Source: a bacterium (lineage in GTDB: Bacteria > Patescibacteriota > Minisyncoccia > Phycocordibacterales > Phycocordibacteraceae). Taken from it: 48,176 nt of DNA. The position numbers and the translations under genes are program-made. The stretch lies in the NCBI GenBank assembly GCA_900299275.1, contig OMJE01000021.1, positions 1 to 48,176 on the forward strand, given 5' to 3'. The first letter of the stretch is position 1. Every line of letters starts with the position of its first letter. The notes beneath the pieces were generated by a model. The model saw only the letters and a program-made list of their open reading frames with translations. It made no database searches and was not told the DNA's origin. Shown piece after piece: positions 4,825 through 21,339 of this stretch.

Positions 4825-5745
4825 TCAATGACGACTCCGAGAGTGGAACTTCTTGTGGATCTCGCGCAGGTGCGCATCGGTGACGTGGGTGTAGATCTGG
4901 GTGGTGGTGATCGAGGAGTGGCCGAGGAGCTGCTGCACCGAGCGAATATCCGCACCATTATTTAAGAGATCGGTAGCGAAGGCGTGGCGGAGCGTGTGCG
5001 GAGTCACCACGCTCGTGATCCCCGCGATCGCCACATAGCGCTTAAGGTGTCGTTGCACATCGCGCGGGGTGATGCGGTGAAGCTTGCCCGGTCGGCCTTC
5101 GACAAAGAGCGGTTCTTCCATATCCTTACGTGCTTTAAGATACTCCTGCACCGCCTCTTTAGCAGCAGGGGAGATAAAGACCACGCGTACCTTCTCGCCC
5201 TTACCGCGCACGCTCATCTCGTCCCGGCTGAGGTCGATGTCGCTATTTAAGCCGCAGAGCTCAGAGACGCGCAGGCCCGTAGAGAAGAGGAACTCAAGGA
5301 TCGCTGTGTCGCGGAGGCCCAAGAGCTTTTTAGCATCACTCTCGGCCTTGCTGGCGAGCTCGCGCGGCGCCTTAAGGAGCCGGTCGAGCTCAGCTGAGGT
5401 GATGAGGTCGAGGTGGCGCTCGGGGAGCTTAGCGAGCTCGATCTTCTCAGGCGAGATGACCGCCACGTCGCGCTTACGCATAAACTTAAGGAAGGCACGG
5501 AGTGCGATCATGTAGTAGTTCTGGGTCCGGCGCTTCATCGAGTCGCGACCGCTCCCGGGCTGGCGGTTAAGCCAGAGGCGGAAGTCGCGTATACTCTGCT
5601 CGCTGATATCAGACACCTTTTTAATATTCATCTGGGCGAAGTAGCGGGTGAGGTAGCGGTCATAATTCTCCACCGTCTTCACAGCGCGGCCGCGCTCAAT
5701 CTCGATATATTCTAAAAACTGGCGCTTAGCCGTCTCGGCGTCCAT
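4825..5745 (-). CDS. xerC: Tyrosine site-specific recombinase, XerC/XerD-like
   Basis: The C-terminal catalytic region reads HTLRHAFATDLLNNGADIRSVQQLLGHSSITTTQIYTHV. The N-terminal SAM-like domain reads FLEYIEIERGRAVKTVENYDRYL. I chose the start at M25 of the track ORF (ATG at 5745) because the 5817 start would overlap rpsO. Whether it is XerC or XerD cannot be decided. Confidence 0.88.
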   Translation of the reverse strand: MDAETAKRQFLEYIEIERGRAVKTVENYDRYLTRYFAQMNIKKVSDISEQSIRDFRLWLNRQPGSGRDSMKRRTQNYYMIALRAFLKFMRKRDVAVISPEKIELAKLPERHLDLITSAELDRLLKAPRELASKAESDAKKLLGLRDTAILEFLFSTGLRVSELCGLNSDIDLSRDEMSVRGKGEKVRVVFISPAAKEAVQEYLKARKDMEEPLFVEGRPGKLHRITPRDVQRHLKRYVAIAGITSVVTPHTLRHAFATDLLNNGADIRSVQQLLGHSSITTTQIYTHVTDAHLREIHKKFHSRSRH

Positions 5746-5840
5746 ATGAAAATAAGTATACCTCCCTAGCGGGGAGCCCTCCGCTCCGCATTTGAACACC
5801 CTTGCGTTTTTTTGCAAGGCGTGGTAAGGTCAGGAGGTCT

Positions 5841-6236: not shown

Positions 6237-6752
6237 ATGGCAGTTATCAAACATCCAGCTCAGCGTGTGGGCGTATTCATCGACACGCAAAATCTCTATC
6301 ACAGTGCAAAGAATCTCTACAAAGCTCGCGTGAATTTTGCAAACATCCTCGAGGAGGCTGTAGGCGGACGCACACTCGTGCGTGCGATCGCGTACGTGAT
6401 TTCAACGGAGGGCGGCGAAGAGCAAAATTTCTTTGACGCGCTCACAAAAATTGGTATTGAAACAAAGGTTAAAGACCTGCAGATTTTTGCTGGAGGCGCA
6501 AAGAAGGCTGACTGGGACGTGGGGCTCGCTATCGATGCCGTAAAACTTGCCCCAAAACTCGATACCATCGTTCTCGCTACTGGCGATGGCGATTTTGTGC
6601 CGCTCATTCAGTATCTTGATATGCACGAAGGATGCCAAGTTGAAGTTATTTCATTTGGCAAATCGTCATCGGGAAAACTCAAAGAAGCCGCTCATGCTTT
6701 CACCGATATGAGTGACAATCCAAAGAAATTCACTATTAGTTCTCGCGGATAA
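6237..6752 (+). CDS. NYN-domain (LabA/DUF88, PIN-like) putative RNase
   Basis: VGVFIDTQNLY, ADWDVGLAIDA and LATGDGDFVPL give the acidic-residue pattern typical of NYN/LabA domains. Confidence 0.8.
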   Translation: MAVIKHPAQRVGVFIDTQNLYHSAKNLYKARVNFANILEEAVGGRTLVRAIAYVISTEGGEEQNFFDALTKIGIETKVKDLQIFAGGAKKADWDVGLAIDAVKLAPKLDTIVLATGDGDFVPLIQYLDMHEGCQVEVISFGKSSSGKLKEAAHAFTDMSDNPKKFTISSRG

Positions 6753-6790: not shown

Positions 6791-8071
6791 ATGGCCGACG
6801 AACCAATCAAAAATAATGGAGCGAAGCCGGCGGTGAAATTTATCCGTACGTATGCTTCAGACATGGAGATCGCCAAGAAGGGCGGTCAGCCCGACCTGAA
6901 GCCCTATGAAGAGCGCGAAAGTATCATTCCCCTGCAATCAGCCGAAACTCCGGAAGTCAGTGCGCCTGCACCCGTAGTATTAAAAGAGCCGAATGAGTTT
7001 CTAAAACGGCAGGCAGCAGTGGCTTCGCCTGAAGTAGCACCTCCTGCTCCGCCGGTGCTGGCTAAAGAAATGGAATTGCCTAGGTCTATACCTGAACCGA
7101 CGGCGCCAATTGGAGCGCCCACGCCACTCCATACGTATGCCGAAGATTTTTCACAGCACGTGAAGGAAGAAAAGGCATCGACGTTTGAGATTCTTGCAGC
7201 GCAGCAGGACACGGGAAAGGCTGTGCCGAAAGCGGCGCCGAAGAAAAGTAACACGATGCTGTACCTTATTGGCGGGACTGTGCTCTTTGTGCTTGGCGCG
7301 GGTGGGGCCTATGTTGGCTATCTCCGCTACCAGGCGGCTTACGCGCCGATCATGCCTGCACCAACGATATCAGCACCGATTTTTTATGACGAGCAACGCG
7401 AAGTGGCGGGCGACGGTCCAGCGCTGGCTCAAAACATAGCGCAAGCGGCGCAGGAAGCGCTCACGAGTAATAAAGTTCGACTTATATATAGTGCAAATGC
7501 CACAACAACGCGTCTAGGACTGTTTGTGGCAGCACAAATCAATGCACCAGCGGGAATCACGCAGAATGTTGTGGGCGAGAGTAGTATGGTGGGAAGTGTG
7601 AATAGTGATGGAGTCCCGTCGCCGTTTTTTATTCTCTCGGTGCTGTCCTACAGTGACACCTTTGCCAATATGCTTGCGTGGGAGTCGTCAATACTCAGCG
7701 ATCTTCGCGATTTCTATCCCGCATATCCCGCAGTTGTGCCGTTGCCAGAGGTGCCTCCAGTCATTGCGACCACCTCCATCGCCGCTACCACCACCCCGAC
7801 GACAACCTCAACAAAACAAAAGAAAACACAGCCAGCACCACAAAAGAAACCGCAACCCGCACCCGCACCAATACCAGTGCCACCCGCGATTGTGGTGGGC
7901 TTCGTCGACGGTGTGGTGAGCAATCTCGATGTGCGCATGTACAAGGACGTCGCGGGACGCACGGTCATTGTGTATGGCTTCTGGAATCCCAACACGTTGA
8001 TCATTGCGCGGGATGGGGCAGCATTCACCGAGATAGTGCGTCGGCTGCGCACGACGCGCACCCAGCCCTAG
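6791..8071 (+). CDS. Hypothetical single-pass membrane protein with Pro/Ala/Thr-rich linkers
   Basis: One clear TM segment (MLYLIGGTVLFVLGAGGAYVGYL) and low-complexity stretches (TTTPTTTSTKQKKTQPAPQKKPQPAPAPIPVPP). No recognisable domain. Confidence 0.7.
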   Translation: MADEPIKNNGAKPAVKFIRTYASDMEIAKKGGQPDLKPYEERESIIPLQSAETPEVSAPAPVVLKEPNEFLKRQAAVASPEVAPPAPPVLAKEMELPRSIPEPTAPIGAPTPLHTYAEDFSQHVKEEKASTFEILAAQQDTGKAVPKAAPKKSNTMLYLIGGTVLFVLGAGGAYVGYLRYQAAYAPIMPAPTISAPIFYDEQREVAGDGPALAQNIAQAAQEALTSNKVRLIYSANATTTRLGLFVAAQINAPAGITQNVVGESSMVGSVNSDGVPSPFFILSVLSYSDTFANMLAWESSILSDLRDFYPAYPAVVPLPEVPPVIATTSIAATTTPTTTSTKQKKTQPAPQKKPQPAPAPIPVPPAIVVGFVDGVVSNLDVRMYKDVAGRTVIVYGFWNPNTLIIARDGAAFTEIVRRLRTTRTQP

Positions 8072-8090: not shown

Positions 8091-8441
8091 ATGGACACGA
8101 CACATTTGAAAGAAAAATTAGAAAAAGAAAAAGTAGCGCTTGAAACGCGACTGGCGAGCGTGGGACGCAAAAGCGCCACGGTCCCTGGCGACTGGGAGAA
8201 TTTGCCGGCAGAGCAGAACGTAGAACCAGATCCGATCGATCAGGCGGAGGTAACAACAGAACGCGAAAATGAAGTTGCCATCTTGGAAGCGCTGGAGTCG
8301 CAGTATGATGCGGTGCTGAAAGCATTGAAACGCATCGATGACGGCACCTATGGAAAGTGTGAGGTGTGCGGAGCATCGATCGCGCCGGAGCGGCTCGAAG
8401 CAAATCCAGCAGCGACCACCTGCACGCTGCACATGCAGTAG
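8091..8441 (+). CDS. DksA/TraR-family zinc-finger protein (variant CxxC-X17-CxxH)
   Basis: A coiled-coil-like N-terminus is followed by [32 protein letters not shown], which matches the DksA/TraR C4 finger layout. The last ligand position is His. Confidence 0.8.
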
Positions 8442-8449
8442 ACACAAGA

Positions 8450-10009
8450 ATGGCTGTCCCGAAACCAGCATCGGGCAAGACAACACCGCACACAAAGCAA
8501 GGGTATGCGAAAACACTTGCTGCGCAGCCAGTGGGTTCGAGTGCAGAACTTGTGACCGTCGAAGCAGACCTCACGCGAGGTCTGCATTCATTTAGTATCG
8601 TCGGACTTGCTGATAAAGCGGTTGAGGAAGCGCGCGATCGATTGAGTGCGGCTATTCGTCACTCCGGAGTGAAATCGCCAAAGCAACAAAACAAACGTAT
8701 TGTACTCTCGCTCTCGCCCGCAGATTTAAAAAAAGAGGGTTCACATTACGATCTCGCCCTTGCCGTCGCGTATCTTGTCGCTGTCGAAGAGCTGAGGCCG
8801 CTTCTCAGTGAATCGCTCTTCATCGGCGAACTCGCGCTCGATGGAACGCTGCGAACCGTGCGCGGTGTGTTGCCGCAAGTGCTCGCCGCAAAGCGCGCCG
8901 GGGTGGAGAAGGTCTTTGTGCCGTCCGGGAATGCGCGCGAGGCACTCATCGCAGAGGGAGTACACGTGTACGCACCGGCTACGCTCGACGAGCTCATTAA
9001 ATATCTGAAAGGAGAAAAGCCCCTTGCTGAGCGTTTGCGTGATCGCACCAAATCCGCACCGCCACCTGCTCTCGACCTCGCTGAGGTAAAAGGGCAGGAG
9101 ACAGCGAAGCGTGCGCTCGAGATTGCCGCCGCGGGGCGGCACAATATTGTGTTCTATGGACCTCCCGGAACGGGCAAGACAATGCTCGCACGAGCACTTG
9201 CTGGTATTCTGCCGCCCTTAACGAGCGATGAAGTGCTTGAAGTGACGGCTATTCATTCGACGGCAGGTCTTCTCAAGGATGGCGAGGCAGTGCATTGGCC
9301 GCCCTTCCGCGCACCCCATCACTCGGTGTCGCATGTGGCAATCGTCGGGGGCGGCGCATTTCCAAAAGCAGGTGAAGTGACACTGGCACACAAAGGCGTG
9401 CTCTTTCTTGATGAATTTGCGGAGTTCGATTCGCGCGCCCTTGAAGCGCTTCGTCAGCCGCTTGAAGATAAAATTGTTACGGTGTCGCGTGCGCGGGCGA
9501 CGATCACATTTCCAGCCGACTGTATGATCGTCGCTGCGATGAACTCAGCAGACACGCTCACGGACGACACTGCGACAGCGTTGCGCGCGGCCGCAAAGCA
9601 GGCGCGCAGGATCAGTCGCCCGATCGTCGATCGACTTGATCTATGGATCGAAGTGCCACATGTGCCGCACCAAACACTGACGAAGCTCGCAACAGGGGAG
9701 AGCTCAGAAAAAGTGCGTGCCCGTGTGCTCGCCGCGCGCGCAAAAGCACAGGTGCGGAGTAGCAAAGCAGGCTATACGAATGCTGCCTTAAGCGGTAAAG
9801 AGCTCGATGAAAAAAGCGGCTTCACCGCTGCAGCCACCGAGGCACTCTCGAGTGCTGCTGCACGACTCAATCTCTCACCACGCAGTTATCACCGCACGAT
9901 GCGTGTGGCGCGCACGATTGCTGATCTCGCGGGCTCTGATGCCGTCGCTCCCGCGCATGTACTTGAGGCGCTGCAATATCGCCCGCGCGGGTTGTTTGGA
10001 TTTGAATAA
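8450..10009 (+). CDS. comM: Mg-chelatase-like AAA+ protein ComM/YifB
   Basis: The N-terminal Lon-protease-like domain reads [18 protein letters not shown]. Walker A is [18 protein letters not shown] and the C-terminal [18 protein letters not shown] are also present. The start was trimmed to MAVPKP, just after the dksA-like stop. Confidence 0.88.
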
Positions 10010-11053
10010 TTAGTGGGCAAACGGATTTTTAGCACCGCGAACTTCGAAGTGGAGGTGCGTACCAGTCGATTTACCGGTCGAGCCCATGTAGCCGATGACC
10101 TGACCCTGGTTGACGCCCTGGCCGGGCACGACAATCGCATTCACGAGGTGGCCATAGAGCGTCTGAGTGCCATTCGGGTGGCTAATAACTACGTAGTTTC
10201 CATAACCACCATTCCAGCCACCGTTGCGGGCAATGATGATAGTTCCGTCTGCTGCCGCAAGAATTGGTGTGCCGCGTGCAGCGCCAAGATCGACACCATT
10301 GTGACCGTGGAGACCCTGAGTGAGATGCGAACCCGGGGCGGGGTTAGCATAGTAACCAGCGATCAATGGTCCGCCGCCGCCCAGATAGGGTTCAGCGCCG
10401 CTGGTTTTTCTCGTATGTTTTTTCGAAATCGGCGCAGTAGCAACTGAGTTTACTTCGCCTCCCGGAATGATAACCGTAGAACCGACGGCAAGAGGCTCGT
10501 GCGGGTCAAGGCCGTTGTATTGGGCTATTTCGTTTGCGTCTGCGCCATACGCCTTGGCCAATGATTGAAGCGTGTCGCCCTTTGTTACCGTGCGGCGTAT
10601 GCCACTCACGGGCAAGATTGCGAGCGTGTCACCTACTTTAATATCCTTTGGGCCCTTCAAATTGTTTGCCCAAATAATGGTGTTTACGGAAACATTGAAC
10701 ATCTTTGCGATGTCAGAGAGCGTATCTCCAGGACGCACCACGTATACAGAGATTTGATCGGTGGAAGGCATGTCGATCACGTCCGAAACGGTCCCGGATG
10801 GCCCAGAATAGGCAACAAGTGCTGCGTCACCCGACGTAGCAAGCGGAATATCTGGATCGGCGCCTGGATCAATATTGATCGGTGCAACCAGAGCTGCTGT
10901 GGACGCGCTCGGCACCACGGACACTTCCTGCGCGTCGGCGTTATTCCATGAAAATGGCCAAAAAGCCTCCGCGTGCTGCGGGAGAAGACTTAACGAGAAC
11001 AAAATGCTAGAGAGCCCTGCTGCGAGATGTTTTTTGTTTTCTGTAATAGGCAA
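10010..11053 (-). CDS. Secreted LysM-LysM-M23 peptidoglycan metalloendopeptidase
   Basis: It has a signal/TM segment and two LysM repeats (YVVRPGDTLSDIAKMF..., TVTKGDTLQSLAKAYG...). The M23 motifs HNGVDLGA, GNYVVISHPNG and GTHLHFEV are present. Confidence 0.9.
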   Translation of the reverse strand: MPITENKKHLAAGLSSILFSLSLLPQHAEAFWPFSWNNADAQEVSVVPSASTAALVAPINIDPGADPDIPLATSGDAALVAYSGPSGTVSDVIDMPSTDQISVYVVRPGDTLSDIAKMFNVSVNTIIWANNLKGPKDIKVGDTLAILPVSGIRRTVTKGDTLQSLAKAYGADANEIAQYNGLDPHEPLAVGSTVIIPGGEVNSVATAPISKKHTRKTSGAEPYLGGGGPLIAGYYANPAPGSHLTQGLHGHNGVDLGAARGTPILAAADGTIIIARNGGWNGGYGNYVVISHPNGTQTLYGHLVNAIVVPGQGVNQGQVIGYMGSTGKSTGTHLHFEVRGAKNPFAH

Positions 11054-11228: not shown

Positions 11229-13163
11229 GTGAAATACCTCGACGGACTTAATGAAGCTCAAAAAAGGGCCGTGCTCGCCACCAAAGGGCCCGTTTCCGTG
11301 CTTGCGGGAGCGGGGAGCGGCAAAACGCGCGTACTTACCACGCGCATTTACCACTTAATACGCGAAGGAGTGCCCGCCTCCGAGATCCTCGCCGTCACCT
11401 TTACCAACAAGGCCGCACGCGAGATGCGCGAGCGCGTGCGCGTAATGCTGGGCGACGACGCGGGACCGAATGGCACTCCTTTTATCGCTACGTTCCACGG
11501 TTTGGGGCGCGAATTACTTGAAAGTTACGGCAGTGTGATGGGCATCCCTCGCTATTTCACGGTGTACGATCGCGACGACTCTGAACGCGTCATTGGCGCC
11601 GCACTCAAGAAACTTGCTGTGGAGGCAAAAGAACTTTCGCCGCGCGCGGTGCTTGGCCGCATTTCACGACTCAAGGGGGAGGGTACGCGCGCCAGTGAGT
11701 TCAATGAAAAGCAAGGACGGTCGAGCTTTGGTGCGCGCGTGACGGCCGAAGCATGGCTTGCCTATGAAAAAGAGTTGGCCAAAGAAAAAGCCCTTGATTT
11801 CGATGATCTCATTGCACTGCCGGTGCGTTTGCTCGAACAGTATCCCGAGGTGCGCGCTCGTGCACAGCAGCGCTGGCGGTATTTACATATTGATGAATAT
11901 CAAGACACCAATGCGTTACAGGAAAAACTTGCGACGCTGCTCGCAGCTCCGCTCAATAATATTTTTGTCGTGGGCGATGGTGATCAGGCCATTTACGGCT
12001 GGCGCGGTGCAAAGATGGAGAATATTTTGAATTTCGGCAAGCGTTTCCCGAGCGCGGAGACCATCATTCTGGAACACAATTACCGCTCCACTAAGAATCT
12101 CGTGGAAGCGGCAAATGCGGTAATCGAACAAAATAAGAAGCGTGCCGATAAGAAATCGATTACCGACAATGAGCGTGGCGACCGGATAACACTCCATATA
12201 GCAGTAAATGCAGAAGATGAGGCGCGGTGGGTTGCGCAAAAAATAAAAGAATTGATCCGCGGAGGCGAAAAACCAGAAAACATCGCCATATTGTTCCGAA
12301 CCAACTTCCAATCACGCGCGCTTGAAGAAGGGCTTTTGCGCTCCGGCGTACCGTACAAGCTTCTCGGTACGCATTTCTTTGCGCGAAAAGAGGTGAAGGA
12401 TGTGCTTGCGTGGATGCGTCTTGCGCTTGAGCCCACGCGCGAAGCCGATAAGATGCGCGCGGCAGCTAATCCGTCGCGCGGTATTGGCAAAGTGACGCTC
12501 GGAAAGCTTGTGGCGGGAGATCGCGACGCACTTCGTCCGAGTGAAAAAGCAAAGGTGGCGGCATTTGAGAATGTAATCCGTGAGCTTGCAGAAGCAGCAG
12601 AGACTGAGACGCCGTCGGCATTCGTAAAAATGGTCATTGAAAAAAGCGGCATGGAGGCGGCACTCCGAGAAGGCGACGCGGACGATCGTGAGCGTTTTGA
12701 GAACATTGAAGAGTTGGTGTCGGTCGCGACGCGTCACGATGGTATGCCCGGTCGCGCCGGTATCGCGGCCTTTCTCGCTGATGCAGCGCTTGCGAGTGAT
12801 CAAGACGAAATAGATCAAGGAGAAAAGACGGGCGTTATGCTGATGACCGTTCATGCAGCGAAGGGTCTGGAATTCGATACAGTGTTTGTGACCGGTATGG
12901 AGGAGGGACTCTTCCCTCACGAGGGAATGGGGGACCGCGACCGCGACGAAGAAGAGGAGCGACGACTTTTTTATGTGGCAATGACACGGGCGCGGCGCCG
13001 ACTTTTCCTCACGCTCGCGCGTATGCGCAAGATCTACGGCAGTGATTTTATGTCGGAACCATCGTCATTCCTGGCCGACATCGACCGCTCACTCCTTATA
13101 TATGATGAGACGCAGGCTCGTTATGGAGCGTATGATGACTATATACCGAGCATAGAGCTATGA
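11229..13163 (+). CDS. pcrA: UvrD/PcrA/Rep-family SF1 DNA helicase (GTG start)
   Basis: LNEAQKRAV, Walker A AGAGSGKT, TFTNKAAREM, DEYQDTN, VGDGDQAIYGWRGA, NYRST, TVHAAKGLEF and YVAMTRAR are all present. Confidence 0.9.
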   Translation: MKYLDGLNEAQKRAVLATKGPVSVLAGAGSGKTRVLTTRIYHLIREGVPASEILAVTFTNKAAREMRERVRVMLGDDAGPNGTPFIATFHGLGRELLESYGSVMGIPRYFTVYDRDDSERVIGAALKKLAVEAKELSPRAVLGRISRLKGEGTRASEFNEKQGRSSFGARVTAEAWLAYEKELAKEKALDFDDLIALPVRLLEQYPEVRARAQQRWRYLHIDEYQDTNALQEKLATLLAAPLNNIFVVGDGDQAIYGWRGAKMENILNFGKRFPSAETIILEHNYRSTKNLVEAANAVIEQNKKRADKKSITDNERGDRITLHIAVNAEDEARWVAQKIKELIRGGEKPENIAILFRTNFQSRALEEGLLRSGVPYKLLGTHFFARKEVKDVLAWMRLALEPTREADKMRAAANPSRGIGKVTLGKLVAGDRDALRPSEKAKVAAFENVIRELAEAAETETPSAFVKMVIEKSGMEAALREGDADDRERFENIEELVSVATRHDGMPGRAGIAAFLADAALASDQDEIDQGEKTGVMLMTVHAAKGLEFDTVFVTGMEEGLFPHEGMGDRDRDEEEERRLFYVAMTRARRRLFLTLARMRKIYGSDFMSEPSSFLADIDRSLLIYDETQARYGAYDDYIPSIEL

Positions 13164-14764
13164 CGTCATCAGGAAAGGGCAGACCGTATTACGCCGCGAG
13201 CTTTGCGGCTGGCTTTTGTCTGATGGCTGTGGAGATAGTGTCGTCGCGCATTGTCGCTCCTATTATTGGGTCATCGCTGTATACGTGGACGGCAGTCATT
13301 GGTGTGACGCTGCTTGGATTGTCGCTCGGGAGTGTCCTGGGTGGCATCTTGGCCGATCGTTATTTGCCGCTCTTTGGCCGTAAAGTCCTCGCGTATGCGG
13401 CGTTGGGCTGCGCCGCCCTGGTGTACGCCATGGTGCCACTTTCAAAGAATCTCGGTTTCATATTTTCTTTTTCGACGTCTCTTCCACCTTTGTCGCTGCT
13501 CATTAGTGCGGTATTATTTTTGCTACCTGCTCTTGCCATCGGCACGCTCTCGCCGCTCATTTTTAAATTGTACGTTTCAGATTTGCAGGATATTGGCACC
13601 AAATATGGGCAACTCTCCGGCATCTGGTCACTCGGGAGCATCGCGGGAGTTTTTGTGACAGGGTATTATTTTATCCAGTCGTTGGGTACCGCTCGCACGG
13701 TAAGCGTTGTTGCAGTGCTACTGCTCGCTCTGTTTTTTTATTTTTTTACGAGCGATATGCGCCGCTCTATGGATGCACGACGCGATGCGCTCATTCTTGG
13801 GGCAGTACTGCTTGCCGCATTACTTATCGGCACTTTCTCGTGGGGACGTGCCGCTAAAGCCGCTGATAACATTCTTTTTGAAAAAGATACTGCCTACTAT
13901 GCCGTAAAGGTTGTCGACCACGATCTGTATCCGCGATATGGCAAAAACAGAATGCTGTTTCTTGATGTTGACATGCATAGTATTCAGACTGAAAAACCAT
14001 CGCACGAGTTTTACACGGACATCGCGCCGGCATTTTCTGCTTTATCATCGACAATCAACAACATTTACGTAATTGGTGCAGGCGCGTATACGTTGCCTAG
14101 TAATCTGCGCAGACAGTACCCCAAAGCGTCGATTGATGTGTTGGAAATCGATCCCGAGATCGAAAAGGTGGGCCGGCAATTTTTTAATAGCAACGACTAT
14201 GCACTCCACACCATTGTGGGAGACGCGCGTGTTTTCTTTCGCGACCAGCCCACGGCACATACGAAGAGGTATGACCTTATCTACGGCGATGCCTACAATT
14301 CTTTTGTGTCCGTGCCATGGTACCTGCTGACAAAAGAATCGATAGCCGAAACGAAGCGCTACCTGAATCCGGGCGGTATGTACGCCATAAATTTTATTAG
14401 TGCGCTCGAGGGTCAGGATGCGGCGTTATTTCGGAGTGTACGTCGCACGATGGCAGAATCGTTTCGAAATAATTACGTCTTCGCTTTCGGTAAGGACGCA
14501 GAAAAGATACAGAACATAACGATTGTCGGGGTAGCAAGTGATGTGCGGATTCCCGACGACGTTATTAGTGGACGCCTACAGTCCATCGACCAGACCCATT
14601 TTCTTGCGCAGGCGTTTGCGGCAAATGCCGTCGTACAAAAGCAAGATATCAATAAAGGCACGTTGCTCACCGATGATTTCGCACCAGTGGAATCAATGAT
14701 GTCAGGGCTTATGAAGGACTATTTCCCAAAATATATTGCGTTGTATCATGACATACTTAGCTAA
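13160..14764 (+). CDS. Membrane-fused spermidine-synthase-like (PABS/class I methyltransferase fold) protein
   Basis: The N-terminal ~200 aa are polytopic. The C-terminal part reads VIGAGAYTLPSNL ... IDVLEIDPEI ... GDARVFF ... YDLIYGDAYN, typical of spermidine-synthase-like domains. Its ATGA overlaps the pcrA stop. Confidence 0.8.
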   Translation: MTSSGKGRPYYAASFAAGFCLMAVEIVSSRIVAPIIGSSLYTWTAVIGVTLLGLSLGSVLGGILADRYLPLFGRKVLAYAALGCAALVYAMVPLSKNLGFIFSFSTSLPPLSLLISAVLFLLPALAIGTLSPLIFKLYVSDLQDIGTKYGQLSGIWSLGSIAGVFVTGYYFIQSLGTARTVSVVAVLLLALFFYFFTSDMRRSMDARRDALILGAVLLAALLIGTFSWGRAAKAADNILFEKDTAYYAVKVVDHDLYPRYGKNRMLFLDVDMHSIQTEKPSHEFYTDIAPAFSALSSTINNIYVIGAGAYTLPSNLRRQYPKASIDVLEIDPEIEKVGRQFFNSNDYALHTIVGDARVFFRDQPTAHTKRYDLIYGDAYNSFVSVPWYLLTKESIAETKRYLNPGGMYAINFISALEGQDAALFRSVRRTMAESFRNNYVFAFGKDAEKIQNITIVGVASDVRIPDDVISGRLQSIDQTHFLAQAFAANAVVQKQDINKGTLLTDDFAPVESMMSGLMKDYFPKYIALYHDILS

Positions 14765-15521: not shown

Positions 15522-15568
15522 TTTACGTGCATACAATATGTGCAGATAGTGCGTTGACGGATGTGCCA

Positions 15569-15579
15569 GCTGGTATACT
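15569..15579 (+). promoter_or_regulatory. Extended -10-like element GCTGGTATACT, 9 nt upstream of the cluster's first ATG
   Basis: TGGTATACT fits the pattern TGn plus a -10 hexamer. TTGACG lies 14 nt upstream. The same 11-mer recurs at 26363..26373. Confidence 0.35.
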
Positions 15580-15588
15580 AAGTGCATT

Positions 15589-16626
15589 ATGGAGGGTGTT
15601 CTACGAAATTGGCGTATCGTAAGCGCATTGCTCTTTTCAACTGCACTCATAGTCGGTGCGTATGTACTTACGCAGGGCATTTCTTCTCCAACACACGTGG
15701 AAGCATCTACGGAGACGGCACTGCTTGAAGCCATAGCAACACGCGATTCAGATAATGACGGTCTTCCTGACTGGGAAGAGTCACTTTATGGGACCAATCC
15801 GCAGGTGGCAGACACGTTTAAGCTTGGCATGACGGATGGCGCAGCGGTGGCCAAAGGACTTATTGTGCCGAAAGCAATTGCCAATATGCCGGGCACGGCC
15901 ACAACATCAGGCCCTGCCATCGTCACCGCCCCTGGTTTGCCTCCTCCGCCCGCCGAAGGCACCATTACGGCGACCTTCGCGAGGAATTTATTTACCGCAT
16001 ATCTTGCGGCGGTGCAGAAGAGCCCAGATGGCAATCTTTCGGACAGCGATACAAAAGCATTAGCGACCGATGCGTTGGCTCAGCTCATGGGATCCGTTGT
16101 TGCCGCTCCGGATTTCAAATCAATGAACAATCTCGTTGTCTCAGGCTCTGGACCTCAGGCGCTGAAGGAATATGCGGCCAGCGTCGAGGCGATATTTCTA
16201 GCGAACAAGGGCAATGCGCAAACGAGCGAGATCGTATATTTAAAGAAAGCCGTTGAGGAGAGTGACGATGCGGCGCTTACACATATTGCTGCAATTGCAA
16301 AGATGTATCGCATGTCGGCGGCGGGCCTCGCCGCGCTTGCGGTGCCGCAGGAACTTGCGCAGGCTGATCTTGATCTGATGAACGCAATGAGTCAGCTCAG
16401 CTCGATAAATGAAGATTTCACGCGGGTCAACACGGATCCGCTTGCTACCATCCTGGCTCTTAAACAGTATCCGAATGCCGTAAAAAAGCTTAGTGGCGCC
16501 TTTGTTGCCATCAATCAAATTTACAAAAACAGTGGAGTTGTTCTCGCAAAAGGTGAACCCGGAGCATCAATTGTGAATCTGATTGCCGATGTAGCCGCCG
16601 AGCAGAAGGCCACTAATAAACAATGA
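15589..16626 (+). CDS. Hypothetical N-terminally anchored exported protein (cluster gene 1)
   Basis: An N-terminal TM segment (IVSALLFSTALIVGAYVL) is followed by the acidic motif DSDNDGLPDWEESLYGTNP (thrombospondin-type-3-like Ca-binding pattern). The rest is Ala-rich and looks helical. No further motif. Confidence 0.75.
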   Translation: MEGVLRNWRIVSALLFSTALIVGAYVLTQGISSPTHVEASTETALLEAIATRDSDNDGLPDWEESLYGTNPQVADTFKLGMTDGAAVAKGLIVPKAIANMPGTATTSGPAIVTAPGLPPPPAEGTITATFARNLFTAYLAAVQKSPDGNLSDSDTKALATDALAQLMGSVVAAPDFKSMNNLVVSGSGPQALKEYAASVEAIFLANKGNAQTSEIVYLKKAVEESDDAALTHIAAIAKMYRMSAAGLAALAVPQELAQADLDLMNAMSQLSSINEDFTRVNTDPLATILALKQYPNAVKKLSGAFVAINQIYKNSGVVLAKGEPGASIVNLIADVAAEQKATNKQ

Positions 16627-18368
16627 GCACCTATCGATCAATACTTGCGCGCGCATTAATGATTGTACTCATTGCTGTGCTGCCATCGACCGTGCTTGTG
16701 TTTCCTCAGAGAGCACATGCGATTGTTGTTCCGGTTGCAGTTACCGAGGACCTTCCTACATGGGCTGAGACGACAATTACTGCGGTAAAATCAACGATCT
16801 CAGCTGTGGCAAACGTTACGTCGGCAGCAGCAACGTATGCAACCTACATCAAAGACTATGTTCTCGAACCGATAGCGTTTATCACGTCCGGCAACCTCAT
16901 ACGTTCACTTACGGCCGGCGTTATCGACTTTGTTAATGGAAAAACAAACAGCACGGGCCAGTCGCAATTTGTTCAGGACCTCCAAGGCAATCTAAAAAAG
17001 TTAAGCGATAACCAGGCAAGCGCGTTTTTGGTGCAATTCGGAAAACATAACAACTCCCCGTTCGCTGCTTCTATTGGCTCATCGCTCCGCAATAACTATT
17101 ACCAGGACACCAGCTTGGCGGGGTTCTTTGCAAAAAATCGAAATACGCTCCCTCAATTCTCTAGTGATCCTGAGGCGTTCTTGCGGGGAGATTGGTCTAA
17201 GGGGGGTGTGGGTGCTTGGATGGCTCTCACTACACGACCCGAAAATAATCCTTATCTGCTGCATCAGAGAGCACAGGAAGAGATGGCACTCATGATTGAG
17301 TCAAAAACGGCTGAACGACTGAACCAATTGTCGTGGGGCAGTGGCTTTATGTCTTGGTGCGGTGGTACGGCAGAAAAAGATGCGTGTAATGCAGACGGCA
17401 ATCCGGGCACACTGCAGGATAGTGGTCTTTGTTTACCTAATACTCAAAAAGATGCGCAGGGCAACAATGTTCCGGCGACGCCTGATCAGGCGGGGGATCC
17501 CTGCATTAAGAAAGATGGTACCCCCGGGAAGATTCAGACGCCGGGATCGGTTATTAAGTCCACGCTCGACAAAGCGCTCGGACTATCTGCAGATAAGATT
17601 GCACAAATGGGCAACACCGCAGCGCAAATAAATCAAATTCTTAGCAACATTTCGAGTGTTATGGACACCGTTAATTTTGCATCTGGCATTTTGGGTAGCG
17701 CGAGTGTGAGCGGTCTCACAGGTGGGCTTGCGGGTTCTAGTGATACGCGGCCAGACGGCATTTCGTACATGGACTCTTACAAGATTAATATGGGCGCGTT
17801 TGGCGTTACGCAAGACACCATCACGCATGATGCTGCCGGATCCCCGACGCTTAATGGCGAGCAGTATAGCGAAGGCCTCAATGATTATGAGACCTACTGG
17901 AAAAAGATAAAAGCACAGGCCGACAAAACAGCTGCGAATCTTGCGCTACTGAAGACCGATCTAGGTAATCGACAGTGTTTCAACAAAGAATACACACTCG
18001 ATGCCACTGCTATCGATAGGGCGGTGGCTTCCAGCGTAACTCCAGTCTTTGATGCGTATACGACGGCATCTACTACCATTGCTGATGGGAGGGCATTTTT
18101 ACAGCAGCTCAAAGCGAATGCTACGTCATCGGACCCGGCCAAGCGCGATCAATATGTGAACGATCTCCGTTCGCTGCAGACTCGGCCGCCGACGGCACGC
18201 AACGTGGCACAGGCAGAACAAGAGTCGCAAACTACAAGATTGGCAGTTCCGACGCCGGCGGACTCGTATGCGCTCGACGTATCAGATGGCACCGTGGTCG
18301 ACAGATTGCAGCTCTTGATACAAAACTCAGACAAGCTCAGGCAAGCATGCTTCCTACAACGACGCTAA
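16623..18368 (+). CDS. Hypothetical secreted protein, 581 aa (cluster gene 2)
   Basis: A signal-like N-terminus ends in AHA-IVVPV. There is a Cys-containing Gly/Asp-rich middle part and a helical C-terminus. The start overlaps the gene 1 stop (ATGA). Confidence 0.75.
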   Translation: MSTYRSILARALMIVLIAVLPSTVLVFPQRAHAIVVPVAVTEDLPTWAETTITAVKSTISAVANVTSAAATYATYIKDYVLEPIAFITSGNLIRSLTAGVIDFVNGKTNSTGQSQFVQDLQGNLKKLSDNQASAFLVQFGKHNNSPFAASIGSSLRNNYYQDTSLAGFFAKNRNTLPQFSSDPEAFLRGDWSKGGVGAWMALTTRPENNPYLLHQRAQEEMALMIESKTAERLNQLSWGSGFMSWCGGTAEKDACNADGNPGTLQDSGLCLPNTQKDAQGNNVPATPDQAGDPCIKKDGTPGKIQTPGSVIKSTLDKALGLSADKIAQMGNTAAQINQILSNISSVMDTVNFASGILGSASVSGLTGGLAGSSDTRPDGISYMDSYKINMGAFGVTQDTITHDAAGSPTLNGEQYSEGLNDYETYWKKIKAQADKTAANLALLKTDLGNRQCFNKEYTLDATAIDRAVASSVTPVFDAYTTASTTIADGRAFLQQLKANATSSDPAKRDQYVNDLRSLQTRPPTARNVAQAEQESQTTRLAVPTPADSYALDVSDGTVVDRLQLLIQNSDKLRQACFLQRR

Positions 18369-18369
18369 T

Positions 18370-20274
18370 ATGACATGGAAATCTAGAACTATTGCGTTGC
18401 TTAGCATCCTCTGCGTTGTGGCGTTTGCGATGCCAGTCGGTAGAGTGGCCTACGCCGCAGCGGACCCAAATACTCCTGCGGCGCCTACACCAGCGCCCAC
18501 AACGGCGTCCACTCCCGATGCCTCGGCTAAAATTGTCACTCCCGCAAATCAACCCAAGATGGAGGGCTTTCTGGCAACGATGGTGCAAGACATCGTCACA
18601 ATATTTGCCTGGATGCTCGGTACTTCCGCCATTGTGCTCGATAAGGTGGTGCTGTATACGGTTGTTAAAATGGGTGACTATGTGAACGGGCTGAGTGCGG
18701 TGGGCGTCGTGTGGCGCATCTTTCGTGATATTGGCAACATTGCGCTTATTTTCGGATTTCTTGCTATCGGTATCTCGATAATCCTCGACTCAGGGAAATT
18801 TGGGTATAACAAAAATATGCTCCCCATGCTGCTCATTGTGGCAGCAACATTAAACTTCTCGTTATTTGCCGCGGAGGCGACCGTTGATGTGGGTAATCTC
18901 TTTGCGACACAGATATATCAGCAAATTCGCGGAGGGCAGGCCGCGGGCACGGCCGATTCACAAGGTGTAATGGGTGAGGGAATTTCCAATCGTGTTATGG
19001 GCCAGCTTGGTTTGCAAACAATGTACAACAGTGCCATCGCAAATAAAGAACTATATAACGCCAATAGTTCGCTGATTGTTGGATTTTTTAGCATTATACT
19101 GTTCCTGACCGCGGCAACAATATTTTTTATGCTCGCGCTCATTCTGGTATTCCGTTTTGTGGTGCTCATTCTTGTGGTCATGACATCGCCGCTTGGTATT
19201 GCCGGGCTCGTAATACCAAAACTTGGGCCCACGGCCCAAAAGTGGTGGCACCATCTCATCAATCAAACTATCTCCGCGCCAGTGCTTTTGCTCATGCTTT
19301 ACGTGGCACTTGCGGTGATTACCGACGTCAATTTTCTCACCGGCTTCAATATTAAGGCACCTGATGGATGGTTGTATTCCTTTGGTGCAGATCCGGGAGC
19401 CACGGCTGGACTGATTCTTTCTTTTGCAGTGGCCATGGCACTTCTTGCCCAAGTCGCTGTTGTTGCTAAGGCGATGGGTGCAGCGGGTGCCGATCTTGCT
19501 CTGAGAGGTGGGCAAATGGCTTCCTTCGGGAGCATGGCGCGCCTTATCGGAGGTGCAACGAATCTCGGCGGCTATATAACTCGTAAAAGTCTCCAGGCGT
19601 CGGGCTACACGGGCCCTGGCTCGCGCCTGGCGATGCGCGGAGCCTTAGCTGCCCAGGGTGCGCGGGGGGACATTCGAAACATTCCTGGCGTGGGTGCGGG
19701 ACTAGCAGCGACGGGTCTGGGCGCGGCGGCAAAGCCTGTTAGCACCGGTGTGTACGTTGGTGGTACGGGTGTGCGAGAGGCCTGGAGCAAAGCGTCCAAA
19801 GAAAGAGGAAAGGCCTATGAAGCTCAGATGAGGGTCCCCTTGTTGTTAAACGCAACGAGCAGTACAGAACAGGCGCGGCTTTTGAACGCCATGACAGATG
19901 ATGAGCTCAAGAGCGCGGAAATCACAAACTACTTCGCCGCTAATCCTTCCAAGATCGCGCTGCTTACACCAAACAAGATCGGTGGTGTCGATCCAAAACT
20001 TTTTGCAACAAGCCCAGCGGTGGTTGAAGAAATGACAAACAATCAATTCAAAGCACTTAAAAACAAGGCAGGTGACTTTGATAGCGAGACAGCAACCGCG
20101 ATTGGTGCAAAACTCTCGAGTAGTAGAAGCTTCAATTCTATGTTTAGAACCGCGAACGGTGATCTTCAAAAAGAATTTACAGATGCTTTTAACCTAGCGG
20201 CCGCAGCTGTAAGCACATCTTCAGGCGCAGCGTATGACCCCGACAATCCACCTGCGGATATGGCGGTGCACTAA
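18370..20274 (+). CDS. Hypothetical polytopic membrane protein, 634 aa, TrbL/VirB6-like architecture (cluster gene 3)
   Basis: It has a signal peptide (AYA-AADP), a Pro/Thr linker, at least 6 hydrophobic helices and a soluble ~170-aa C-terminal domain. The start is 2 nt after the gene 2 stop. The VirB6 analogy rests on architecture only. Confidence 0.75.
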   Translation: MTWKSRTIALLSILCVVAFAMPVGRVAYAAADPNTPAAPTPAPTTASTPDASAKIVTPANQPKMEGFLATMVQDIVTIFAWMLGTSAIVLDKVVLYTVVKMGDYVNGLSAVGVVWRIFRDIGNIALIFGFLAIGISIILDSGKFGYNKNMLPMLLIVAATLNFSLFAAEATVDVGNLFATQIYQQIRGGQAAGTADSQGVMGEGISNRVMGQLGLQTMYNSAIANKELYNANSSLIVGFFSIILFLTAATIFFMLALILVFRFVVLILVVMTSPLGIAGLVIPKLGPTAQKWWHHLINQTISAPVLLLMLYVALAVITDVNFLTGFNIKAPDGWLYSFGADPGATAGLILSFAVAMALLAQVAVVAKAMGAAGADLALRGGQMASFGSMARLIGGATNLGGYITRKSLQASGYTGPGSRLAMRGALAAQGARGDIRNIPGVGAGLAATGLGAAAKPVSTGVYVGGTGVREAWSKASKERGKAYEAQMRVPLLLNATSSTEQARLLNAMTDDELKSAEITNYFAANPSKIALLTPNKIGGVDPKLFATSPAVVEEMTNNQFKALKNKAGDFDSETATAIGAKLSSSRSFNSMFRTANGDLQKEFTDAFNLAAAAVSTSSGAAYDPDNPPADMAVH

Positions 20275-20301
20275 AGAAGCTCTGCATTGTAAAATACAAT
20301 A

Positions 20302-21261
20302 ATGAAAACATTTTCTCCGCAGGAAGTTGATGTTGCGTACAGGTCCTTGCCTGCCTTCGTGCGTGAGTACATGGACGACAGCGAGCAGTACGTTGATATC
20401 TTGGTCGCCATCGGCGATCAGTACAAGATGCGTATTGATGTGCTGGGGGAATTTTCAGAACTTTTCCGGAATATGATGTACGGTCTCATTTCACCTCAAG
20501 AGCTGGTGCAAGGACTCGTCGAGCTGGGCATCGCAAATGCTGATGTGCAAAAAATCATCGCGGAAATAAATCAAAAAGTGCTGATACCGTTGCGAGAAAA
20601 ATTGCGGGCGGAAACCAAGACGCCTAGCGCTACGGCGGTTGTGAATCCGCAGGCGGCATCCGTGCGACCCCAAGTACCGCCTGCTGCTGCGCCGGTAAGG
20701 CCACAGCCTGCGCCTGCGCGACCGCCATCACCACCTGCTATGCCAAAGATGGTGACAAGCTATGCGCCACCACCACAGTCGCCACGCTATGTGCGTCCTG
20801 AGGTGGTCGTCGAAACAGTCTCCGCACCACTACCTCCAAAAACGATCATGCCGAATGCGCCAACACTGCCGCAACAACGGGATTCGACGCCTGTGCCACC
20901 TCCGCTCGCTCCCGCGCCATTCGAGCGACCAGATCTAAGCAGGGAGATGTCCGTGAGCGCGATGCCGAGTAGTCCACCACCACAATCGTTTGTATCACCA
21001 GAACCGCGCATGGCGGCCTCACCAGTGGCCATGCCTGCGGTTCCGCCGTCTGTGTCCTATCGTGAGCCGGTAGTGCCTGCATACATGCCACCAGCTCCAG
21101 CGCCCGCCATGCCAGAAATGAGTGCAACAATGCCTGCGCCTATGGCACCGCAGGTGCCACCATCGCCGATGCGCTCTTCTTCCACCATCCGCCCACCCGA
21201 GCCCACCATATCCCCCGCGGTGCCTGGCTCGCCCGATCCGTACCGCGAAGTGATAGAGTAA
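20302..21261 (+). CDS. Hypothetical protein with a ~105-aa N-domain and a ~210-aa proline-rich tail (cluster gene 4)
   Basis: No signal peptide. From residue ~110 onward the sequence is dominated by P, A, V, S and M (PPAAAPVRPQPAPARPPSPPAMP ...). Confidence 0.7.
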   Translation: MKTFSPQEVDVAYRSLPAFVREYMDDSEQYVDILVAIGDQYKMRIDVLGEFSELFRNMMYGLISPQELVQGLVELGIANADVQKIIAEINQKVLIPLREKLRAETKTPSATAVVNPQAASVRPQVPPAAAPVRPQPAPARPPSPPAMPKMVTSYAPPPQSPRYVRPEVVVETVSAPLPPKTIMPNAPTLPQQRDSTPVPPPLAPAPFERPDLSREMSVSAMPSSPPPQSFVSPEPRMAASPVAMPAVPPSVSYREPVVPAYMPPAPAPAMPEMSATMPAPMAPQVPPSPMRSSSTIRPPEPTISPAVPGSPDPYREVIE

Positions 21262-21275
21262 TCCGCCCACGGCAT

Positions 21276-21327
21276 TTGCATTTCGACGCGTATTCATTTA
21301 TATTGCTTTAGACCCTTTGAGGGGTCT
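21276..21327 (+). promoter_or_regulatory. str-operon promoter TTGCAT-N17-TATATT plus a 5'-proximal stem-loop
   Basis: The -35 is at 21276..21281 and the -10 at 21299..21304. A hairpin agaccc/gggtct (21310..21327) lies at the predicted 5' end of the transcript. Confidence 0.5.
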
Positions 21328-21339
21328 TCTTTTATCTAA

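Follow-up and report, generated by a model that had tools for sequence, protein, structure and literature searches.

Four consecutive genes lying between rsmA and the str operon of a patescibacterium of the family Phycocordibacteraceae (assembly GCA_900299275.1, contig OMJE01000021.1) very likely constitute the VirB6 module of the MPF-FATA-like type IV secretion system (T4SS) that Patescibacteria carry on the chromosome. The window, i.e. the whole stretch of DNA that was analysed, is the entire contig of 48 kb, and the cluster occupies its positions 15589-21261 on the + strand as four open reading frames (ORFs) of 345, 581, 634 and 319 aa, taken from the ORF list:

15589-16626, + strand: ORF1, 345 aa
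16623-18368, + strand: ORF2, 581 aa
18370-20274, + strand: ORF3, 634 aa
20302-21261, + strand: ORF4, 319 aa

ORF3 is a member of a divergent TrbL/VirB6-like family of polytopic membrane proteins, a relationship that is remote on sequence alone, and ORF1, ORF2 and ORF4 are constant partners of VirB6 in T4SS loci. The decisive evidence for the assignment of ORF3 is its genomic linkage to the T4SS core. The cluster thereby very likely falls within the known patescibacterial T4SS and reveals no novel type of machinery.

Coding for envelope proteins, the four genes form a single unit that is conserved and tightly coupled. ORF1 and ORF2 overlap by 4 nt (spacing -4), ORF2 and ORF3 are separated by 1 nt (+1) and ORF3 and ORF4 by 27 nt (+27). 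Conservation was followed in 80 species-representative loci of Kaiserbacteria/Paceibacteria genomes retrieved via ORF3, in which tblastn recovered ORF2 in 75/80 and ORF1 in 72/80 with constant strand and order, a positional homologue of ORF4 being present in 61 of 65 and the 4-nt overlap between ORF1 and ORF2 being retained in 64 of 69. The gene order, uvrD-rsmA-ORF1-ORF2-ORF3-(ORF4)-rpsL-rpsG-fusA, runs along a single strand, and the module lies apart from virB4 and directly 5' of rpsL in at least 60 species-level genomes. Co-occurrence in a fixed order together with the kept overlap places the cluster beyond chance and identifies its members as real conserved genes. An earlier, sequence-only reading of the window had listed the same four frames with the same lengths and spacings, which the ORF list confirms, and had deduced an operon from them, a deduction now extended by the conserved coupling; the co-occurrence and gene order that it proposed to look for in candidate phyla radiation (CPR) genomes were indeed found. 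The start that it gave, 15569, lies 20 nt 5' of the ATG of ORF1 and out of frame with it, and the protein lengths fit a start at 15589.

The link to type IV secretion emerges from the 3 of these 80 loci in which rpsL does not follow ORF4 (hereafter L056, L061 and L081). There, ORF4 is directly followed by the genes for PrgI/VirB3, an ORF in the position of TrsD and VirB4, and a further locus, L089, is also contiguous, all four belonging to close relatives. The genes downstream of ORF4 are as follows:

Directly after ORF4 (L056, L061, L081), 137 aa: PrgI/VirB3-family protein (PF12666, 2.5e-11)
After prgI, 211 aa: TrsD-position ORF, without Pfam match and assigned by position only
After the TrsD-position ORF, 608 aa: VirB4-type ATPase (PF19044 P-loop_TraG, 6.6e-27; AAA_10; DUF87)
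After virB4 and before the pilin gene: a membrane protein, then a secreted protein
Next: VirB2-like pilin with a T4SS_pilin/TrbC N-terminus (PF18895, 7.4e-8; TrbC, 6e-4)
After the pilin gene, 403 aa: ORF without Pfam match, followed by yidC on the opposite strand

The contiguous order therefore reads uvrD-rsmA-ORF1-ORF2-ORF3-ORF4-prgI-TrsD position-virB4-...-pilin-yidC, with ORF4 between virB6 and virB3/prgI. Chromosomal MPF-FATA-like T4SS loci of Patescibacteria, of which this is one, have been surveyed by Quinonero-Coronel et al. 2025 (PMC12102498), who counted 480 VirB6 against 2,474 virB4 and found KsgA (RsmA) to be abundant near virB4. In the portion of their Table S3 considered here, VirB6, one unlisted gene, VirB3, TrsD and VirB4 follow each other as genes 531-535 of RAAC4_OD1_1 and genes 293-297 of GCA_000990175.1. 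The sequence-only reading had seen in the cluster a dedicated machine of unknown function, a view that does not survive the finding that relatives run ORF1-4 straight into prgI/virB3, the TrsD-position ORF, virB4 and a pilin gene.

A second sample, of 80 VirB4 loci obtained by scanning metagenome contigs with the VirB4 alignment, was searched by tblastn and with hidden Markov models (HMMs) of ORF1-4. Among the contiguous VirB4 loci with enough flank, the HMM of the N-terminal domain of ORF4 matched the ORF directly 5' of PrgI in 37 of 38, ORF3 was found four genes 5' of virB4 in all of 24 and ORF1 in all of 19. The remaining, split loci begin with prgI-TrsD position-virB4-... and are preceded by about 9 kb occupied by unrelated housekeeping genes. 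They retain intact prgI, TrsD-position ORF, virB4 and pilin genes; in the flanks of the 16 split VirB4 loci with at least 3.8 kb upstream, no match to the HMMs of ORF1-4 and no VirB6-like protein was found, nor was a homologue of any window gene found at the split VirB4 loci. Since the split VirB4 loci lack a VirB6, ORF3 is left as the only VirB6 candidate. For the same reason, the idea that ORF3 is a lone VirB6 paralogue beside a canonical VirB6 at the VirB4 locus was dropped.

A neighbour-joining tree of VirB4 groups the 17 split loci, without exception, into a single terminal clade that is nested among contiguous lineages; its sister is L089, followed by L056, L061 and L081, and this nested position marks the split as derived. 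The simplest reading is that a single rearrangement divided the ancestral locus at the boundary of ORF4 and virB3, and the rsmA-ORF1-4-rpsL arrangement of the window would be the other half of that same split. Such a rearrangement would have left the VirB6 module beside rsmA and made it a neighbour of the str operon, and the ATPase and pilin module would have come to lie elsewhere. The position between rsmA and the str operon, under which the sequence-only reading had described the cluster, accordingly appears on the VirB4 tree to be derived and does not define the cluster. Six genomes carrying rsmA-ORF1-4 are VirB4-positive in Table S1 of PMC12102498, five of them (L005, L007, L014, L024 and L042) being split with rpsL after the cluster and one (L061) contiguous.

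Other arrangements were also observed in the metagenome loci. L125 (JADMIO011409266.1, 1-7000) displays a third one, ORF3-ORF4-prgI-TrsD position-virB4, two small genes and then rpsL-rpsG-fusA, its pilin part lying elsewhere. In the split loci L084 and L098, motifs in the ~9 kb 5' of prgI suggest genes for an RNase H-like protein, for a large membrane protein and for an M50-like protease; these housekeeping-like genes have no homologue in the window.

The features of ORF3 itself agree with a VirB6-type protein. Its hydrophobic segments, determined like those of ORF1, ORF2 and ORF4 by a Kyte-Doolittle scan, comprise a signal-like N-terminus, followed by an exposed linker rich in Pro, Thr and Ala, and about seven segments at residues 75-372; a hydrophilic, variable tail of 260 aa completes the protein. 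The tail is probably cytoplasmic, because its first 68 residues hold 8 K/R against 2 D/E. This layout corresponds to that of 'extended VirB6' proteins, which are polytopic with at least 5 transmembrane (TM) helices and an optional large hydrophilic domain (PMC12857230). Homologues of ORF3 number in the hundreds in metagenome-assembled genomes of Kaiserbacteria/Paceibacterota, and the invariant columns of the family extend from F79 to F386, mainly in the TM core, with the addition of D434 and R436. Pfam TrbL (PF04610) was matched by 11 of 33 homologues at E<=0.01 and TrbL_4 by 2, the best TrbL match in the family (E 8.1e-6; 26.2 bits for a cut-off of 25.9) spanning 24-214 of the profile's 215 positions. 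Several family members were also recognised by NCBIfam models, namely those of the Mbov_0396 TM protein of the Mycoplasma integrative conjugative element (4.4e-6), the conjugal transfer protein MMCAP2_0566 (2.6e-5) and CD3337/EF1877, all three describing conjugation membrane proteins of wall-less or Gram-positive bacteria. The sequence-only reading had found no motif assignable to a known transporter or enzyme in the cluster; this stands for ORF1, ORF2 and ORF4 and is revised for ORF3.

Several observations weigh against the attribution of the cluster to the T4SS. The ORF3 of the window has no VirB6 or TrbL match at E<=0.1 and no Pfam match at E<=1; its best library match, to the NCBIfam 'mobilome membrane protein' CD3337/EF1877, is weak (E 0.13). 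An hhalign comparison of the ORF3 family with one diderm VirB6, TraD of R46, was not significant (E 0.12), TrbL was reached at E<=0.01 by just 1 of 27 VirB4-adjacent ORF3-like proteins, and a PDB profile search with the ORF3 family returned no VirB6 chain. VirB4, VirB3 and pilin genes were not found within the 48-kb window, and the presence of the ATPase module elsewhere in the genome would follow from the relatives and from the published table. The roles of ORF1, ORF2 and ORF4 would likewise follow from topology and gene position only, and neither a substrate nor a function of the T4SS is known for the phylum (PMC11665869). Separately, the lone match of a single-sequence PDB search with ORF3 was a designed helical protein aligned to the tail.

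ORF1, ORF2 and ORF4 match no known family consistently in Pfam, NCBIfam and PDB, nor, for ORF1 and ORF2, in Foldseek comparisons. The descriptions that the sequence-only reading gave of the four proteins agree with the hydropathy scan, and its remark that they escape standard annotation is upheld, as the libraries give the window proteins nothing beyond a sub-threshold TSP3 repeat. This repeat lies in ORF1, in which a single N-terminal hydrophobic segment (residues 8-31) forming a membrane anchor is followed by the DSDNDGLPDWEE motif, a Pro-rich linker and an all-helical C-terminal domain. The motif is a match to Pfam TSP3_bac (PF18884) at residues 53-72, with 23.8 bits for a cut-off of 25; it is of the DxDxDG calcium-binding type, for which the family repeat reads DxDxDGxxDxxE, and is present as one repeat only, with no variation of its residues across the alignment. 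A PF18884 match is precomputed for many homologues, which are named TSP3 repeat-containing proteins by NCBI. At least 397 homologues were found, with 52-62% identity and mostly 340-350 aa among the 120 listed. The AlphaFold2 (AF2) model of ORF1 is all helical, with a predicted local distance difference test (pLDDT) score of 74 and a predicted template modelling (pTM) score of 0.71; Foldseek gave no significant neighbour in PDB (best E 0.29), and a PDB profile search with ORF1 returned nothing. A VirB8-like identity (PrgL/TcpC/ConB) was considered for ORF1, whose bitopic topology fits, and was rejected because the model is all helical whereas VirB8 has an NTF2 fold; no VirB8-like structure was retrieved by Foldseek. 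In three distant metagenome VirB4 loci (L138, L145 and L152), two tandem ORF1-like genes precede the gene in the position of ORF2, which suggests a duplication of the anchored helical subunit.

ORF2 starts with a cleavable-looking, signal-like segment ending in AHA and continues with a mostly helical body, in which Cys246 is conserved in 61/61 and Cys294 in 57/61 sequences. Its AF2 model has a pLDDT of 69, exceeding 90 in a C-terminal helical bundle (residues 410-577), and Foldseek against PDB retrieved generic helical bundles (best E 0.2) and no VirB5 structure, the fold of which is a three-helix bundle bearing a globular appendage. The family is large, with 127 homologues by word-indexed search and 4,698 cluster representatives by profile search (E<=1e-3). 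Direct Pfam and NCBIfam scans of ORF2 gave chance-level matches only, PDB sequence and profile searches coiled-coil noise only, and Pfam on 61 family members neither a consistent nor a VirB5-type match. Weak DUF4141 matches were obtained in three family members, with E 7.6e-4 for the L056 orthologue and 2.5e-3 for one member of alignment A2; in the L056 orthologue, the sole case with a reported position, the match is N-terminal (residues 22-54). A gene of the DUF4141 family adjoins the VirB6 homologue traJ in Bacteroides conjugative transposons. An identity of ORF2 with VirB5/TraC/TrbJ was nonetheless set aside: the hhalign comparison with TraC of R46 was not significant (E 0.2), and the agreement is confined to the position 5' of virB6 and to the secreted, helical character. 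Among ten long family members, Pfam detected two weak Peptidase_M15_4 matches in an inserted central region (P0392 and P0422), and fibronectin type III domains (8.8e-11) occur in two sequences of alignment A6 from VirB4-linked loci, which are ORF3-like or ORF2-position proteins. Together, the M15_4 insert and the fibronectin type III domains point to modular surface extensions.

ORF4 has no hydrophobic segment and contains 20.7% proline. About 100 aa at its N-terminus make up a conserved domain that looks helical; a variable proline-rich tail follows, with 18-36% Pro in the tails of homologues. Pfam and PDB profile searches with the N-terminal domain gave marginal and inconsistent matches only (mTERF, PUF).

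In the VirB6-module interpretation, ORF3 would be the polytopic membrane platform or channel of the T4SS, on which ORF1 and ORF2, the latter with a putative disulfide, would form an extracytoplasmic, wall-spanning part serving as a base or adhesin for a VirB2-like pilus. ORF4 would lie on the cytoplasmic face, where its proline-rich tail would be a flexible adaptor reaching the ATPase module (VirB3/TrsD/VirB4) encoded elsewhere in the genome, and the overlapping or abutting stop and start codons would couple translation and thereby keep the stoichiometry of ORF1, ORF2 and ORF3. A more far-reaching proposal, which we put forward only tentatively, takes ORF1, ORF2 and ORF4 jointly as unrecognised core subunits of the patescibacterial T4SS, with ORF2 as the counterpart of VirB5 and ORF1 as a wall-spanning stator replacing VirB8. 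The secreted ORF2, encoded 1 nt 5' of VirB6, would then dock on VirB6 and nucleate or cap the VirB2-like pilus. If true, ORF2 as the VirB5 counterpart would explain the building of a pilus by a monoderm T4SS.

Other explanations accept the conserved unit and differ on its function. After the split, the module might have become independent of VirB4 and serve as a VirB6-centred adhesin or anchoring platform, or as a passive conduit, without a T4SS ATPase. Its position directly 5' of rpsL and apart from virB4 in at least 60 species-level genomes, its own apparent promoter-like and terminator-like signals and the lack of an ATPase gene within the 48-kb window would all suit such an autonomy. We nevertheless hold it to be unlikely: the split VirB4 loci are intact yet without VirB6, which would be unusual for a T4SS, the domain layout and the coupling of the module are the same as in contiguous loci, and dispersed T4SS genes are known, for example in Rickettsia (cited in PMC12102498). 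A novel envelope machine specific to the CPR and without relation to type IV secretion is very improbable; the TrbL-like matches of ORF3 relatives would then be a chance resemblance of polytopic membrane proteins, and the adjacency to virB4 in some genomes would be incidental. The lack of significant Pfam, NCBIfam or PDB matches for the window proteins, the non-significant hhalign comparison with TraD and the ORF1 and ORF2 models without structural neighbour could be read in favour of such a machine; they are opposed by three independent model libraries indicating VirB6-type conjugation membrane proteins, with near full-length TrbL coverage, by an adjacency to prgI, the TrsD position and virB4 that holds everywhere except in a single derived clade (37/38, 24/24 and 19/19) and by a gene order agreeing with the VirB6-x-VirB3-TrsD-VirB4 rows seen in the part of the published table considered.

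A decaying, non-functional remnant, left after the ATPase half moved or was lost, would account for the separation from virB4 and for the low median identities, 29-52% vs 69-87% for RsmA, RpsL and FusA. In detail, the medians relative to the window are 52, 36, 42 and 29% for ORF1 to ORF4, 69% for RsmA and 87% for RpsL, and a faster evolution than the neighbouring genes is usual for exposed envelope proteins. Decay is extremely doubtful for genes that are all intact in the window and persist in relatives at the frequencies given above (75/80, 72/80 and 61/65), that keep a near-constant ORF1 length and a 4-nt overlap in 64/69 loci, and that preserve invariant residues in the TM core of ORF3 and the two cysteines of ORF2 (Cys246 in 61/61, Cys294 in 57/61). 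There is a practically negligible chance that the cluster belongs to a mobile element or an integrated conjugative one. VirB6-like proteins are typical of conjugative elements and a tyrosine recombinase gene is located about 10 kb upstream; however, the chromosomal position between housekeeping genes is fixed in all relatives, the GC content is even across the cluster region, no relaxase or coupling protein was found near the cluster among the window ORFs scanned with Pfam, tblastn of plasmids with ORF2 and ORF3 gave no match, and relaxases are absent from most patescibacterial T4SS according to the literature. The recombinase (4825-5817, - strand) has a Phage_integrase domain and a SAM-like N-domain, is not adjacent to the cluster and is most likely a housekeeping enzyme of the XerC/D type.

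Possible transcription signals and a cell-wall hydrolase gene were also located in the window:

15554..15579, + strand: promoter-like TTGACG ... TGgTATACT (extended -10), read from the sequence, ending 9 nt before the ATG of ORF1
21310..21335, + strand: terminator-like hairpin AGACCCTTTGAGGGGTCT with a T-run, between the stop of ORF4 (21261) and the ATG of rpsL (21340)
10010-11053, - strand: cell-wall hydrolase with Peptidase_M23 and two LysM domains (Pfam M23 2e-31, LysM 5.7e-27)

The promoter-like element has a spacer of only 14 nt, hence its absence from the consensus scan, and may weakly hint at a near-leaderless transcript start for the cluster. The hairpin is likely the predicted 3' end of the four-gene transcription unit; like the promoter-like element, it is a consensus match only, in a region where 8 terminator-like sites were found against 8.8 expected in shuffled sequence. 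The 78-nt gap between ORF4 and rpsL successively contains, at 21275-21335, a promoter-like TTTGCA-18-TATATT, the GC-rich hairpin and the T-run, and could act as the terminator of the cluster, as a leader structure of the str operon, or as both. A homologue of the M23/LysM gene is found on the - strand 5' of uvrD in 49 of the 49 related loci with enough flank, including the contiguous L056 and L081, and its product might possibly be a VirB1-like partner of the system. Proteins bearing M23/LysM near virB4 were counted as VirB1-like and are associated with VirB4 in Paceibacteria (PMC12102498); in the section of Table S3 covering GCA_000990165.1, a LysM 'VirB1' stands 8 genes before VirB3.

The immediate neighbours of the cluster in the window are uvrD/pcrA, a gene for a 534-aa membrane protein and rsmA on the 5' side, and rpsL, rpsG and fusA on the 3' side. 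The polytopic 534-aa protein (13160-14764, between uvrD and rsmA) has no Pfam match and its gene overlaps the start of rsmA by 29 nt at its 3' end; it was detected in just 5 of the 80 related loci, twice with the opposite orientation, and is thus a lineage-variable insert. A spermidine-synthase-like identity was dropped for it, given the lack of a Pfam match. Another ORF without Pfam match, of 426 aa (6791-8071), lies between an NYN-domain gene (6237-6752) and a ComM/Mg-chelatase-like gene (8366-10009). An Rfam scan of the window gave two tRNAs and nothing else.

Among the few machines whose necessity for the epibiotic life of a cultivated CPR bacterium has been demonstrated is the T4SS: according to Wang et al. 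2023 (PMC10633639), the Saccharibacterium Southlakia epibionticum requires the homologous system (SEML1_0006-0019) to grow on its host, and the locus has no coupling protein and no relaxase (PMC10633639, PMC12857230, PMC11665869). In published surveys, no VirB6 was found in most virB4-positive genomes, and VirB8 and VirB5 were almost absent. The present locus shows that a highly divergent VirB6 family, mostly missed by standard profiles, is constant in the T4SS of Paceibacteria, and that the families of ORF1, ORF2 and ORF4, all three without a name and that of ORF2 counting about 4,700 cluster representatives, are also constant parts of T4SS loci. ORF1, ORF2 and ORF4 are candidates for the missing wall-spanning and pilus-base subunits. 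As the T4SS can be chromosomally split, searches limited to the neighbourhood of virB4 miss half of it.

Dispersal of this kind recalls the rvh system of Rickettsiales, the exception to T4SS gene clustering cited in PMC12102498, which is likewise spread over several places on the chromosome, its VirB6-type genes lying apart from virB4; the present system differs by a single VirB6-like gene in place of a paralogue array and by a split that apparently occurred as one recent event in one clade. The diderm virB5-virB6 and the Bacteroides TraI(DUF4141)-TraJ pairs share with ORF2-ORF3 a secreted, largely helical protein encoded directly 5' of a VirB6 homologue, in a resemblance that is positional and topological only, ORF2 being more than twice the size of VirB5. 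Monoderm VirB6-type proteins such as CD3337/EF1877 and Mbov_0396 are, like ORF3, polytopic with a large hydrophilic extension and encoded beside VirB3-like and VirB4 genes, within systems that span the wall and have no outer-membrane core; PrgH of pCF10 and ConG of ICEBs1 are of the same type. The similarity to ORF3 is marginal (E 1e-3 to 4e-6) and found in some members of the family only, and the Gram-positive systems are without VirB2-like pilins, whereas the patescibacterial system has them, is chromosomal and lacks a relaxase.

The closest likeness is with the patescibacterial T4SS already described. The window departs from it in that its VirB6 module borders directly on the str operon, apart from the module of the ATPase and pilin, in that the ORF3 family mostly escapes the VirB6 profiles of the survey (PMC12102498), and in that ORF1, ORF2 and ORF4 are not among the T4SS components in the part of its Table S3 considered here. 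Both share the taxon, Paceibacteria, a core of VirB6-like protein, PrgI/VirB3, TrsD-position ORF, VirB4 and VirB2-like pilin at the orthologous loci, and a chromosomal housekeeping context with KsgA/RsmA adjacent and no relaxase among the scanned ORFs, as well as, in the table rows considered, the order VirB6, one gene, VirB3, TrsD and VirB4.

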